Of a stretch of DNA of 64,000 nt, positions 42,076 through 60,069 are shown in pieces; positions within the stretch are counted from its first letter, which is position 1; each line of letters opens with the position of its first letter. A program made the translations under genes and the position numbers. The notes under the pieces were generated by a model that was not told the DNA's origin, searched no databases, and saw only the letters and a list, made by a program, of their open reading frames with translations. The stretch lies in the NCBI GenBank assembly GCA_014685065.1, contig GCA_014685065.1_4092.2; one strand, 5' to 3'. This stretch comes from a phage.

Positions 42076-42215
42076 ATGTCTAGACCTCCAGATGGCTGGA
42101 AGTAAAGATGGCTATCCCTCTAGGCGGCTGGATGGCTAGATTTCTAGATGGCTGTACTGCTAGACGTTTGGACGGCTAAACGGCTAGATGGTTACACGTC
42201 TGGATGTATAGACGG
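42076..42215. repeat. iteron-like cluster of (A/G)GATGG(C/T)T and GACGGCTAA direct repeats
   Basis: at least 8 copies in about 140 bp with 15-25 bp spacing. Confidence 0.65.
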
Positions 42216-42382
42216 CTAAATCAAAATTTTTATTTTATTTTTTCCAATAGTTCCCCTACCGCGTGGGGATGGTTTCCCCGCAGTATCTGGAGTTAGATTT
42301 TTCTGAATCTGGAATCATTATCCCCGTTTTCGCCTGGTATGTCAACCGTCTGGATGAATAATTTTAAAAAATAATCTAGTAC

Positions 42383-42435
42383 TGAATTTTGGGCGTAACT
42401 ATGCACCCGGTGGGCTTGAGTCTTTCTCGACTTGA
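42383..42435 (+). repeat. repeated element ACTGAATTTTGGGCGTAA...GCACCC...TTTCTCG, copy 1
   Basis: second copy at 42596-42650; shorter third copy near 42028. Confidence 0.55.
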
Positions 42436-42595
42436 TGAAACTATTATACAGTACTGAAAAAATAAAGCAATACCCTAAACGCAAAAAGTTTTAATTAATT
42501 TGCTTGCCATCCTGGGGCGTACTATGGTACTATATTTCAGTACTGAGAAAGTGCTATGACCTGCTAAGGTGCGGGAGTGTATCCTTTTTAAATTT

Positions 42596-44029: not shown

Positions 44030-44151
44030 AAGTACTTGACAGTTATCCGGCTTAGTGAGATAATACTTACAAGCCGGACACAAGGCGATAGCCCATAGGG
44101 TGCGGGAGTGTATCTATAGGAAAGTACTAAAAACTATTTTCAAAAAAGTAC

Positions 44152-46136: not shown

Positions 46137-46304
46137 TACAGAGGGGATCAATTGATCCCCTTTATATTTTTTGTACTGAATCATTTAATAGACGGATCTA
46201 TGCACCCTGTGGGTTAGTGACTATCTCGTCTTTATGTAAGTATTATGCCAGTACTGGATGCAGTTGTCAAGACTTTTTTTTCAAATACTTTTATATCAAA
46301 GTAC

Positions 46305-50304: not shown

Positions 50305-50310
50305 AAAAAG

Positions 50311-50342
50311 TGGTTGACTTCGGTCAGCCATTTTGCTATTAT
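50311..50342 (+). terminator. bifunctional terminator/promoter module
   Basis: TGGTTGACTTCGGTCAGCCA + TTTTGCTATTAT. Confidence 0.65.
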
Positions 50343-50366
50343 ATATTCATTGAGAGATAGCTCACT

Positions 50367-50392
50367 AGCCCACAGGGTGCAGGAATGTATCT
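50367..50392 (+). repeat. conserved element AGCCCACAGGGTGCAGGAATGTATCT
   Basis: same element near 44093, 52048, 54401, 57711, 59965 and inverted near 46197. Confidence 0.5.
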
Positions 50393-50446
50393 ATTGTATA
50401 ATGATTGAGTACTGAAAACTATTTTAAAGTATTTGATAAAAAGTAC

Positions 50447-51448: not shown

Positions 51449-51540
51449 AAATATTATCACAGTACTATTGACAACTGCCGATAGTACTGGCATAATAACT
51501 TTTATCAACAGTAGTTAACTTAACCTAAGAGAGAAACATC

Positions 51541-51684: not shown

Positions 51685-51789
51685 GAATATAGCCCACTGG
51701 TTAACGCTGGTGGGCTTTAATCATTTACCCTATACAATGCCAGTACTAAACCGTTTATCTCGTTAGAATGCGTTACAGGACGTTTAACA

Positions 51790-51987
51790 ATGATTAGCAT
51801 GAAATCAGTACAAAAACAAATTGATACATTATCAAAAATTAAACGTAAACAGTACTCCTTAGAATATACAATCAATGGTAACTATCATCTAATGAAAGAA
51901 AATAATTTTATAGTCATTGATGAATCATTGCAAATCATTAGTATAGTACTGAAAGCATTAATCAATGACAGAAAAAAGTTAAAATAA
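51790..51987 (+). CDS. hypothetical protein
   Basis: RBS AGGA. Confidence 0.45.
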   Translation: MISMKSVQKQIDTLSKIKRKQYSLEYTINGNYHLMKENNFIVIDESLQIISIVLKALINDRKKLK

Positions 51988-51991
51988 TCTA

Positions 51992-52020
51992 TTGACAATA
52001 TTATCCAGTACTGGCATAAT
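51992..52020 (+). promoter_or_regulatory. promoter TTGACA ... GCATAAT
   Basis: attgacaatattatccagtactggcataat. Confidence 0.5.
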
Positions 52021-52079
52021 ACTTACATCAAGACGAGAACGTCACTAACCCATAGGGTGCACAAATGTAACTGTATAAT

Positions 52080-52120
52080 ATTGATCAAAAAATGATCTGA
52101 TCAATACTTGATCAATTTGC
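52080..52120 (+). promoter_or_regulatory. cluster of three TTGATCA half-palindromes, candidate operator
   Basis: ttgatcaaaaaatgatctgatcaatacttgatcaatttg. Confidence 0.4.
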
Positions 52121-52318
52121 GTAAAGTAGTATAATTCTATGCAGTTGGTTAGACGAAAGGTTATGATTAGTAGTGGAAGTGTATAAAAATTTTCATGGTG
52201 TGGTGATCCGCACATATGGGGATGAATATGTCGTGTCGTATGGATTGGAAAAAGTAAGAACAAGTAATATACTTGTCGCGTTACAGTACTATAGTAATTT
52301 TATAATGAGGTTAAAATA

Positions 52319-52576
52319 ATGGCTGTAGGATTCACGAAAGATGGGGCCGAGCAAGACGAGATTAACGCAGTGATTCAGGCCGCTGTTAACCACGCTAGAA
52401 CGCAAATTAACGCACAAATAGAATCACTGATACATTGCCTCGACTGCGGCGATAAAATCCCTGAGAATCGCCGCCAGGCAGTTAAGGGGTGTAAGTACTG
52501 CATCACTTGCCAGGCTGATCATGATAGCATATTCAAACGCAATCCCCGTAATTGTTGGCATAGATCTATGAGATAA
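52319..52576 (+). CDS. TraR/DksA-family C4 zinc-finger protein
   Basis: CLDCGDKIPENRRQAVKGCKYCITCQ matches the CxxC-(17)-CxxC TraR/DksA pattern. Confidence 0.65.
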   Translation: MAVGFTKDGAEQDEINAVIQAAVNHARTQINAQIESLIHCLDCGDKIPENRRQAVKGCKYCITCQADHDSIFKRNPRNCWHRSMR

Positions 52577-52581
52577 AAAGT

Positions 52582-52610
52582 ATTGACAGTGCTGTTAGTT
52601 AGTGTATAAT
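52582..52610 (+). promoter_or_regulatory. promoter TTGACA-17-TATAAT
   Basis: TTGACA 52582-52587, TATAAT 52605-52610. Confidence 0.55.
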
Positions 52611-52639
52611 ATTTTATATCTTAACTGAGGATTGAAATC

Positions 52640-52996
52640 ATGGGTATACAACATATCACGCGTACTACAGACAATGGTGAGATCACTGGCTATCAAGTAC
52701 AAGGCAAAGTAGCACAATTGCAGTACTGGTTTGTTAAACGTGGCATTGTTGCACCAGATCTTGATTATAATCGTGTAGCGTTTATTGATTCTCTTTATGT
52801 TGATCCCGATAATCGCGGTAACGGTGAAGGTACTGAATTAATGAATGCCTTTATTGATGCCGCCGATGATTCAGATTGTATCATCTTAGAATGCGATACG
52901 GGAGAAGATAACGCATTTAATCTTAAAGAATGGTATGAAAGTTTTGGTTTTGAAGTGCTGATGGACTGCGAATATCCTATAATGATTTTATCCTAG
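52640..52996 (+). CDS. putative small GNAT-like acetyltransferase
   Basis: motif-A-like DNRGNGEGTELM, then WYESFGF. Confidence 0.4.
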   Translation: MGIQHITRTTDNGEITGYQVQGKVAQLQYWFVKRGIVAPDLDYNRVAFIDSLYVDPDNRGNGEGTELMNAFIDAADDSDCIILECDTGEDNAFNLKEWYESFGFEVLMDCEYPIMILS

Positions 52997-54334: not shown

Positions 54335-54348
54335 AAAGAATTAAAAAA

Positions 54349-54381
54349 GGGATTGACTCCGGTCAGTCCCTTTGCTATTAT
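54349..54381 (+). terminator. bifunctional terminator/promoter module (GGGATTGACTCCGGTCAGTCCC variant)
   Basis: hairpin 54349-54370 + TTTGCTATTAT. Confidence 0.65.
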
Positions 54382-54481
54382 ATACGCATAGAAACAAATC
54401 AGCCCACAGGGTGCATAAATGTATCTATTATATGCTGGTGGCTAGTACTATCAAGTACTGAAAACTATTTTTAAAAAGTAC

Positions 54482-57638: not shown

Positions 57639-57652
57639 AAAAGATTAAAAAA

Positions 57653-57685
57653 GGGATTGACTCCAGTCAGTCCCTTTGCTATTAT
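57653..57685 (+). terminator. bifunctional terminator/promoter module
   Basis: GGGATTGACTCCAGTCAGTCCC + TTTGCTATTAT. Confidence 0.65.
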
Positions 57686-57779
57686 ATATTCATTGAGAGA
57701 TAACTCACTGACCCATAGGGTGCGGAAGTGTATCTATTATATAAGTATTCAGTACTGAAAACTATTTGATAAAAAGTAC

Positions 57780-59894: not shown

Positions 59895-59913
59895 CAAAAA
59901 AGAATAAAAAAAA

Positions 59914-59946
59914 GGGATTGACTCCGGTCAGTCCCTTTGCTATTAT
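59914..59946 (+). terminator. bifunctional terminator/promoter module
   Basis: AAAGGGATTGACTCCGGTCAGTCCCTTTGCTATTAT. Confidence 0.65.
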
Positions 59947-60069
59947 ATACGCATAGACAAAAACTAGCCCACAGGGTGCAGAGAAGTATCTGTAAGATAG
60001 TTAATAACGGTGAGTAACTATCTGCTGGTGGATGTAATTCCAGTACTCAAAACTATTTCAAAAAAAGTA

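Follow-up and report, generated by a model that had tools for sequence, protein, structure and literature searches.

A TGATCAA heptamer array and a structured RNA motif in an insertion/deletion cassette upstream of a TraR/DksA-family gene of a Rak2-like jumbo coliphage

The DNA considered here is a stretch of 64,000 nucleotides from a phage (GenBank assembly GCA_014685065.1, contig GCA_014685065.1_4092.2), which is called the window in what follows. It comes from an Asteriusvirus, that is, a 121Q/PBECO4-like, Rak2-like jumbo coliphage of ~350 kb, and 36 phage records match its positions 51700-52700 at 87-95% identity. The locus of interest contains an array of TGATCAA heptamers that lies between a structured RNA motif, called the box, and a small gene, open reading frame 293 (ORF293), which is followed by a zinc-finger gene of the DksA/TraR family. 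A first-pass annotation, made from the letters alone, had seen at 52020-52576 a long structured leader with TGATCA repeats upstream of a TraR/DksA-like gene. That observation is partly confirmed by the present analysis, and its interpretation as an operator-controlled transcription modulator is partly supported. The features of the locus are the following.

51978-51988, plus strand: left copy of the 11-bp direct repeat GTTAAAATAAT, found by repeat search and spanning the end of the ORF292-like gene (51790-51987).
51992-52020, plus strand: predicted promoter P1, formed by TTGACA, a 17-nt spacer and TGG-CATAAT (extended -10), with 11/12 matches plus the TG in a consensus scan.
52025-52075, plus strand: box RNA motif, 52.4 bits and E 2.8e-11 with covariance model R1.
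52072-52079, plus strand: "P2", the extended -10-like sequence TGTATAAT, read from the sequence.
52081-52115, no strand assigned: TGATCAA heptamer array, from direct repeat D8, inverted repeat I7 and GATC counts.
52108-52135, plus strand: predicted promoter P3, formed by TTGATC, a 16-nt spacer and TATAAT (52130-52135), 10/12 in the consensus scan.
52155-52160, plus strand: Shine-Dalgarno-like GAAAGG, 5' of the ORF293 start codon.
52173-52319, plus strand: ORF293 (gp293 of phage 121Q, PHROG 38664), 48 aa, GTG start, basic (isoelectric point, pI, 9.1).
52310-52320, plus strand: right copy of GTTAAAATAAT, which contains the end of ORF293, where it overlaps the zinc-finger start (TAATG).
52319-52576, plus strand: DksA/TraR-family C4 zinc-finger gene, 85 aa, closest to E. 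coli YbiI.

The sequence ahead of the zinc-finger gene had been taken for about 300 bp of non-coding DNA. This claim fails, because 52173-52319 is a conserved gene of 48 codons; the true non-coding stretch is 185 bp long (51988-52172) and carries two sigma70-type promoters, P1 and P3. ORF293 is annotated as gp293 in 121Q and also in several other genomes. Its frame is open and free of indels across nine relatives, the substitutions between the two clades of these phages fall 10/8/24 at codon positions 1/2/3, both other frames are full of stops, and the product matches PHROG 38664 with E 1.4e-31. Judging from this pattern of conservation, ORF293 is a real gene, so that the label "non-coding leader" hides a 48-codon gene with a GTG or TTG start, which is missed or truncated in several deposited genomes. 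In TAATG (52317-52321) the end of ORF293 and the start of the zinc-finger gene overlap, which argues for co-expression of both genes by translational coupling. The Shine-Dalgarno sequence of the zinc-finger gene, GAGG at 52307-52310, lies 8 nt upstream of the start and overlaps the first base of the right repeat.

The ORF293 product is basic in all four lineages in which it was found (pI 9.1-10.1). Homologues were restricted to a PBECO4 protein in a large protein database and, by tblastn, to Asteriusvirus, Erwinia phage Hallingskeid and Pectobacterium phage CBB. A confident AlphaFold2 model (predicted local distance difference test, pLDDT, 89) consists of four beta-strands and a C-terminal helix. 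Foldseek searches with this model gave nothing significant in the PDB and returned from BFVD uncharacterised small phage proteins only; the fold relatives, without significant PDB similarity, include members of the AP2 family that occur in structures of mitochondrial ribosomes. An AP2 or integrase-arm-type sequence profile was sought as well, and neither Pfam nor NCBIfam gave a match, the only one being PHROG 38664 (unknown function). Thus, we regard a nucleic-acid-binding role of gp293 as a lead and not as a result.

The assignment of 52319-52576 to a TraR/DksA-like zinc-finger gene was correct. PF01258 is matched at residues 39-68 with 44.5 bits against a gathering cut-off of 24.9 (E 1.5e-11), and cysteines C40, C43, C61 and C64 form a CxxC-N17-CxxC arrangement. 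The protein matches PHROG 54 and its C-terminal tail PHROG 25948, while the structure-linked sequence matches are YbiI (2kgo, E 2.3e-11) and TraR (6n57, E 4.6e-6). YbiI is the closest family and not an equivalog, since the score with the equivalog model NF008243 is 79.3 bits, under the cut-off of 96; the TraR subfamily model TIGR02419 gives 52.0 bits, under its cut-off of 59.7. The N-terminal segment, which includes D8, E11, D13 and E14, aligns with the N-terminus of YbiI. By family membership, this TraR-like factor would be expected to bind the secondary channel of the host RNA polymerase.

The two copies of GTTAAAATAAT, at 51978 and 52310, are spaced by 332 bp (repeat family D14), and the left copy is the left border of a cassette. 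Alignment shows that phage ph0011 lacks the cassette and has one copy of the repeat, at the direct junction of ORF292 and the zinc-finger gene. The same split match is found for phAPEC6 and UE-S1, and ORF293 is missing from all three phages. The 332-bp cassette between the ORF292-like and the YbiI/TraR-like zinc-finger genes is an insertion/deletion unit, for which insertion and deletion are both possible; natural deletion variants of the ph0011 type are usable as controls. The locus lies within a run of small plus-strand genes, most of them with their own consensus sigma70 promoter, and a consensus scan gives eight promoters with perfect TTGACA-N16/17-TATAAT within 49-56 kb. A typical early cassette of this region is formed by TTGACA-N9-AGTACTG-TATAAT, ACATCAAG, a GGGGAGAA/TTCTCCCC stem-loop, ACTAA, a Shine-Dalgarno sequence and ATG. 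In the assemblies that retain both terminal repeats, the annotated direct terminal repeat includes this region, which lies at 10-13 kb from the end of the genome. A search for transfer RNA and transfer-messenger RNA genes gave none. For Rak2-like jumbo phages, early-gene control has been described at the level of promoter predictions only (PMC5259590), and the paper on CBB gives generic promoter classes only.

All promoters given here are predicted as consensus matches. The start site of P1 would be near 52027, with a transcript opening with ACATCAAG; P1 has the AGTACTGGCATAAT form, like the promoters at 51468, 48379 and 48673, and is kept in relatives. P3 is peculiar in that its -35 hexamer is the last repeat of the heptamer array, and its start site would be near 52142. 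Between the clades the stretch from P3 to the Shine-Dalgarno sequence is only 51% identical, and within it GTATAATTCT and AAAGG, the latter kept in both clades 12-13 nt before the GTG or TTG start, stand out as conserved islands, which supports P3 and the ribosome-binding site; on this comparison P3 is under selection. Two other candidates were discarded. "P2" (TGTATAAT) has lost the TG in the 121Q clade, reads TATAAC in Turkey5 and CMSTMSU and is absent in Hallingskeid, and it is probably not a functional promoter; a promoter-like match on the minus strand, from 52104 to 52075, is not conserved. As a separate observation on the promoters of this region, AGTACT occurs 264 times in the whole window, where base composition would predict ~21 and a second-order model ~47. 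It stands directly 5' of the -10 hexamer in most early promoters, yet it is far commoner than promoters are.

The repeats had been described as three TTGATCA half-palindromes. They are real and non-random, but TTGATCA occurs twice (52081 and 52108), the other copy is CTGATCA (52097), and the unit is an asymmetric, directly repeated TGATCAA. A fourth GATC lies in TGATCT at 52093. The sites form two pairs: pair I consists of TGATCAA at 52082-52088 and TGATCTG at 52093-52099, and pair II of TGATCAA at 52098-52104 and at 52109-52115. Thus, the four GATC sequences (starts 52083, 52094, 52099 and 52110) are spaced by 11, 5 and 11 bp, with 11-bp phasing within the pairs, and three of them are present as TGATCAA (starts 52082, 52098 and 52109); the layout is one of direct repeats in a single orientation, in which a 7-bp site and a 4-bp A/T spacer add up to the 11-bp period. 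Four GATC are found here in 52083-52113, whereas every other 36-bp span of the window has at most two. When the 135 sites of the window are placed at random, four fall within 28 bp in ~0.4% of trials. The arrangement TGATCAA-N4-TGATC was found nowhere else in the window or in ~100 kb of other related early-region DNA, save in orthologous copies of the array. The array is confined to this locus and so fits a local operator rather than a regulon. To our knowledge its sequence is unlike any known box, and a comparison by eye with the consensuses of FNR, CRP, Fur and sigma54 gave no fit. The inverted repeat I7 was considered as a terminator hairpin and rejected for its A/U-rich composition, the lack of a U-tract and its disruption in the 121Q clade.

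Alignment of the locus with eight relatives separates two clades, that of the window and that of 121Q. The stretch with P1 and the box (52021-52079) is 97-100% identical between them, the array 78% and ORF293 ~71%. Counted from the box, GATC at +34, +45 and +61 are common to both Asteriusvirus clades; the window clade has an extra one at +50, and the 121Q clade has two extra ones at +90 and +101, 11 bp apart and just 3' of the P3 -10. The Erwinia phage Hallingskeid provides a third lineage. It has an 87%-identical 53-nt match to 52045-52097. Its box is followed by TTGATCAA-N3-TGATCAA, which places GATC at +34 and +45, and across the -10 and the start site lies a second pair, TTGATCAA-N3-TTGATCT. 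The counterpart of P3 in this phage is TTGACT-17-AATAAT. The geometry of box, GATC at +34 and +45 and P3 -10 at +81 is therefore the same in both Asteriusvirus clades and in Hallingskeid. Pair II is on the core of P3 in all three lineages, although at different places: the -35 in the window, ~+1 to +15 in the 121Q clade and -14 to +3 in Hallingskeid. Read in this way from the alignments, pair I is fixed in every lineage, and pair II is somewhere on core P3.

This comparison also tells to which gene the array belongs. In Hallingskeid, the same spacing of box, pair I and P3 precedes a 60-aa homologue of gp293 (36-38% identical), and the next gene is unrelated to DksA/TraR; the array thus belongs to gp293. 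It tracks ORF293 and not the zinc-finger gene, which in ph0011 is present without the cassette. Of the proposed operator-controlled modulator, an operator-like array does stand, in the region that controls an operon with a TraR/DksA-family gene as its last member; the repeats, however, are not in the leader of the zinc-finger gene but 5' of the separate gp293, with which they travel.

Turnover of the sites gives information on what is recognised. The T-GATC-AA flanks are present at 9/13 array sites of the three lineages, compared with 3/131 of the other GATC in the window (2.3%). Even the pair-II sites read TGATCAA in 5/6 cases despite their differing positions (binomial ~4e-8 against the 3/131 background). 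Since repositioned sites still read TGATCAA, the recognised unit is an asymmetric heptamer, wider than GATC. These data bear directly on a second explanation, a Dam/SeqA switch, in which the GATC pairs would be read by their methylation state and P3 would switch with replication: fully methylated incoming DNA would permit P3, and hemimethylated DNA would recruit SeqA, or else a methylated -35 TTGATC would alter the binding of RNA polymerase. The hosts, Escherichia, Salmonella and Erwinia, are Dam-positive enterobacteria, and paired GATC on one helix face is the arrangement that SeqA needs. Every repeat of the array has a GATC, the pairs are 11 bp apart on the same helix face, with at least two such sites within ~31 bp, and one GATC lies within the -35 hexamer of P3. 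Moreover, the retained cluster stands out because GATC is otherwise depleted in the window (135 observed, ~208 expected). Rak2-like phages also encode adenine methyltransferases (PMC5259590). Nevertheless, we consider such a switch unlikely. Dam, SeqA and MutH read GATC only, for which the flanks would be free to vary, yet T and AA are kept; all sites also have one orientation, which is needless for a reader of a palindromic GATC.

The same comparison can be set against the idea that the array has no dedicated function and is debris of a local duplication, or a decayed GATC terminator palindrome like GGGGATCAATTGATCCCC, in a young cassette. TGATCA is self-complementary and copies of it arise easily by slippage, the cassette is dispensable (it is the one absent from ph0011), and two other box units end in terminators with GATCAAT(T/C)GATC at a similar distance from the box, one at 46143-46160 of the window and one in locus L099 of RaK2. 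We find this explanation very doubtful, as pair I is 87% identical between phages of E. coli and Erwinia whose adjacent proteins are 36-38% identical, moved sites are still TGATCAA, and four or five GATC are kept in each examined genome despite the turnover. Two further searches around the box and the array ended in rejection. A 14-nt inverted repeat around the box (51996-52009/52070-52083) is unconserved in Turkey3, Turkey5 and the 121Q clade, and it was taken as chance or local; a scan of IMG/VR for the box plus a GATC pair gave 82 loci, all of them chance matches but for 121Q.

The first-pass annotation had also mentioned a conserved AGCCCA-type element. A conserved element is indeed present, as AACCCATAGGGTGC at 52047-52060, a variant of a repeated AGCCCACAGGGTGC-type element, but there is no AGCCCA in 52020-52318, and the nearest one, at 51691, is in a terminator-like hairpin upstream of ORF292. 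The element is a feature in its own right and belongs to a structured RNA motif with many copies, the box, of which one is found here. At this locus the box has a hairpin, also named P1 but distinct from the promoter, formed by GACG (52032-52035), an AGAA loop and CGTC (52040-52043). CACTAA comes next, and then the invariant hairpin A-CCC-ATA-GGG-T (52048-52058), GC and the tail ACAAATGTAACT, which holds an ATG-TAA start-stop (52065-52070). The related sequence CCCAYNGGGTGC has eight exact copies in the window, compared with 0.4 expected. The box is 97-100% identical between clades that differ by ~29% in ORF293. An exact-pattern scan of IMG/VR found it only in Rak2-like phages (contigs of 345-366 kb), with zero chance matches, and blastn found it at 91-93% identity in RaK2, K64-1 and Salmonella phage 7t3.

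The 42 unique copies collected have one layout: a sigma70 promoter, ~6 nt, (A/T)CAT, a variable 3-5-bp hairpin with an A-rich loop, nCTAR, CCC-AYA-GGG, TGC and GTATCTAT. In a fixed-position test, twelve different stem sequences occupy the same place in the box (GACG/CGTC, AGACA/TGTCT, TCGAA/TTCGA, ACCAC/GTGGT, AGCA/TGCT, TGAG/CTCA, AGTC/GACT, GCC/GGC, GGC/GCC, GAC/GTC, AGC/GCT and TGA/TCA), and Watson-Crick stems of at least 4 bp are found in 14/42 copies, compared with 4.8% of shuffles. The covariance model gives 60 hits, 50 of them distinct, in 158 kb, eight of these hits being in the window. All four pairs of hairpin P1 change on both sides among the 50 distinct copies, and the covariation score, obtained on an alignment that was fitted to the covariance model, is 0.309 against a shuffled mean of 0.126, a value reached by 0/500 shuffles, with slid controls at or below 0.04. 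RNAalifold on a plain MAFFT alignment recovers only the invariant 4-bp hairpin, so that P1 needed a structure-aware alignment, and one subfamily (with …CATAGAAACAAGCTAA…) is without convincing P1. The box is thus a new candidate structured RNA family, limited to the Rak2-like lineage, in which one hairpin covaries and one is invariant. No Rfam family reaches its gathering score in the whole window, and with E up to 10 no match touches the array or the box (52025-52075); within 52020-52576 there is a single weak Rfam hit, Bacilli-1 at 52195-52265 (14.7 bits against 55.6), inside ORF293. The box sequence was not found in a relevant context in the literature searched. Host mimicry was considered and rejected, as blastn of the box unit in 5,426 E. 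coli genomes gave no match.

Box copies differ in what follows them. About 9-11/42 have a terminator at +48 to +75, which would give stand-alone RNAs of ~105-115 nt, ~13/42 are followed by a second promoter, as is the copy at the locus, and the others run into an ORF. Candidate functions are antitermination, processing, decoy and small RNA (sRNA), and they are approachable by transcript mapping. Besides the copy of the locus, the window has seven further boxes with the CCCAYAGGGTGC core, at 42388-42438 (-), 44067-44118 (+), 46187-46237 (-), 50345-50395 (+), 54384-54429 (+), 57688-57738 (+) and 59949-59994 (+). They are found every 2-4 kb of the early region and none before 42 kb, each ~30 nt 3' of a sigma70-type -10. 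The unit at 46140-46242 (-) is a candidate stand-alone sRNA of ~105 nt, running from 46242 to 46140 (-) (fold z = -3.71), with a TTGACA-17-CATAAT promoter (46270 to 46242), the box and the bidirectional terminator palindrome GGGGATCAATTGATCCCC (46143-46160). Terminator-like hairpins at 50307-50342, 54346-54381, 57650-57685 and 59911-59946 each have a full promoter (TTGACT, 17 nt, TGC-TATTAT) that lies within the stem and immediately 3' of it, and then come the box and a second promoter, TTGCAA-16-TATAAT; this module is >90% conserved in RaK2, Salmonella phage 7t3 and Erwinia phage Hallingskeid. On the minus strand at 42150-42350, 3' of the box at 42403 (-), a second promoter-like TTGACA-17-GATAAT is followed by GC-rich hairpins (GGGGAAACCATCCCC), and this stretch may be another non-coding transcript. 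In phages EJP2 (L011 600-760) and ph0011 (L013 600-760), two box units with their own promoters are convergent and ~60 nt apart, so that the facing transcripts would overlap and pair across the box regions. A tiny ORF begins 5-6 nt after the Shine-Dalgarno-like GGGTG of the box. It is ATG-TAA at the locus and (A/G)TG-TAT-CTA-TAG (MYL-stop) or slightly longer in other copies (e.g., 50385, 54419, 57728 and 44108); its first base varies among A, G, T and C, and it may be a minigene or a coincidence.

The proximity of the box raises the question of whether the repeats might act in the RNA. In such a case, GAUCAA repeats in the P1 transcript would bind an RNA-binding protein, as a translational operator of ORF293, or would serve in processing or stability. 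The box, a covariation-supported RNA motif, lies 34 nt upstream of the repeats at a fixed spacing; the Shine-Dalgarno sequence of ORF293 directly adjoins the last two repeats in the 121Q clade and lies ~10 nt downstream of the last pair in Hallingskeid; the mitochondrial ribosome components among the AP2-family fold relatives of ORF293 would also fit. In the window clade, however, pair II lies 5' of the P3 start, with ~40 nt between it and the Shine-Dalgarno sequence, and the I7 hairpin that the repeats would form is not conserved in the 121Q clade. Nor does the leader look clearly structured, as had been claimed: RNA 52027-52175 folds only marginally better than shuffles (z = -1.77; 11/200 shuffles fold as well). 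The location of pair II on core P3 in all three lineages, a matter of DNA, is a simpler common denominator, and we think that action at the RNA level is quite unlikely.

In our opinion, the heptamer array is best read as an operator for a sequence-specific DNA-binding protein, possibly gp293, which would control gp293 itself and the coupled TraR-like factor; we give this reading a probability of about 0.4. A regulatory role is plausible because the array is conserved and overlaps the conserved promoter P3. In the mechanism that we propose, P1, a strong sigma70 promoter, would start a transcript whose first ~50 nt are one copy of the box. P3, together with read-through from P1, would drive ORF293, with the zinc-finger gene co-expressed via TAATG. 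The array would be occupied by a sequence-specific protein, for which the small basic product of ORF293 is the best candidate, and the bound protein would occlude P3 and block transcription coming from P1, thus providing feedback control of ORF293 and the TraR-like factor.

Several points weigh against this operator. The binding of a protein to the array is something that we infer, and every site holds a GATC, so control by Dam methylation or SeqA is possible. The homologue of ORF293 in CBB stands behind a plain promoter with no GATC array, and therefore self-regulation would not be universal if ORF293 is the binder. This homologue is unannotated (49 aa, L014 701-850, PHROG 38664 with E 2.4e-5), is located in the 22-kb terminal repeat and has an ATGA overlap with the start of the annotated gene that follows. 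Pairs I and II lie at varying distances from each other (16, 56 and 46 bp), which does not point to a fixed cooperative architecture, and the fixed spacing of box and array could partly come from common descent rather than from constraint. A role in replication might be thought of too, as 11-bp-phased GATC sites adjoin strong promoters in A+T-rich DNA, a combination with parallels in the low-affinity DnaA sites of oriC, the GATC-rich unwinding elements of oriC and P1 oriR and the promoter-primed origins of T4 and T7. An origin-like element is most improbable, in view of the absence of the cassette from close, viable relatives; a DnaA R-box was not found and no other origin features were seen, and the overlap with a conserved promoter that feeds a gene explains the position of the array more simply.

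An operator for gp293 would be of interest beyond this locus. The cassette is a compact test system, with a candidate operator and a candidate mini-repressor over a TraR-like modulator of the host RNA polymerase. It is a long shot, but two undescribed devices of Rak2-like phages might meet here: the box RNA, acting in put-like antitermination or as an sRNA or decoy in host takeover, and a 48-aa AP2-like repressor, gp293, acting on TGATCAA heptamers. If this were true, gp293 would gate itself and a TraR-like secondary-channel factor from the terminal-repeat end of the genome, the first to enter the cell, and the box RNA would be a multi-copy, promoter-proximal element occurring both as a leader and as a stand-alone RNA of ~110 nt.

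Some other observations concern the surroundings. A GNAT acetyltransferase gene (52640-52996) lies 3' of the zinc-finger gene, with its own perfect promoter at 52583-52610; PBECO4 and the Salmonella SD phages, whose match to the window stops near 52615, lack this gene or have something else in its place. Chi sites (GCTGGTGG) are strongly enriched and strand-biased in the window, with 11 on the plus strand (15715, 28043, 41903, 42750, 47534, 51706, 53169, 54434, 56818, 58226 and 60024) and three on the minus strand (30318, 30576 and 41891), compared with ~0.2 expected per strand. Several of them are just 3' of box units or within a terminator hairpin (51706).

The elements of the cassette can be compared with known systems one at a time. 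Clusters of methylation-sensitive GATC are known from phage Mu mom (three upstream GATC, with OxyR), agn43 and the SeqA sites at oriC and dnaA. The array shares with them the presence of several GATC in a few tens of bp at a promoter in a phage of a Dam-positive host, and differs in its asymmetric TGATCAA direct repeats and the lack of an OxyR-like site. Operators phased by 11 bp are represented by the pho box of PhoB, with 7-bp repeats and 4-bp A/T spacers, and by the arm-type sites of lambda Int. The likeness is close in the layout, with 7-bp direct repeats, 4-bp A/T-rich spacers (TGATCAA-NNNN-TGATC) and one repeat that replaces the -35; in contrast to the pho box, the putative binder would be a 48-aa protein of beta-sheet and helix and not a winged-helix response regulator. 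The zinc-finger protein shares with F-plasmid TraR, E. coli YbiI and phage TraR-like proteins a C4 finger after a single long helix in a short protein, but it is under the curated cut-offs and has its own distinct C-terminal tail.

The box can be placed beside HK022 put, lambda nut and phage sRNAs. Like these, it is found at ~+5 to +50 of early transcripts and is orientation-specific, and it consists of small hairpins with invariant nucleotides that recur through the early region, some as stand-alone RNAs. It differs in having no sequence or structural similarity to put, nut or Rfam families, and in its far higher copy number.

The closest parallel for the cassette as a whole is given by the promoter-early stem-loop (PeSL) cassettes of T4-type phages (Arbiol et al. 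2010, PMC2839356). The two have in common that they are short and repeated, join a strong sigma70-like early promoter to a stem-loop, occur mainly in regions of small non-essential early genes and go together with insertion/deletion differences between close relatives, here through the presence or absence of 332 bp between 11-bp repeats, as in ph0011, with the repeat at the joint, and in the split matches of phAPEC6 and UE-S1. The strong early promoter is found as a consensus match only (11/12 with extended -10 for P1, 12/12 in neighbouring cassettes). As for the terminator stem-loop, the local hairpin (GACG/CGTC) has 4 bp and no U-tract, and other cassettes of the window have the promoter inside a terminator-like hairpin. 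Differences are also clear: the joint is the 11-bp gene-end repeat GTTAAAATAAT instead of a promoter cassette, the stem-loops are 3' of the promoter, in the 5' untranslated region, the lineage is Rak2-like, and neither the box motif nor the heptamer array has been described for PeSLs. By this analogy, the behaviour of the cassette resembles the PeSL-mediated modular shuffling of T4-type phages. The cassette is, in our opinion, a variant on a known kind of phage regulatory cassette, and the box RNA family is the most novel by-product of its analysis.

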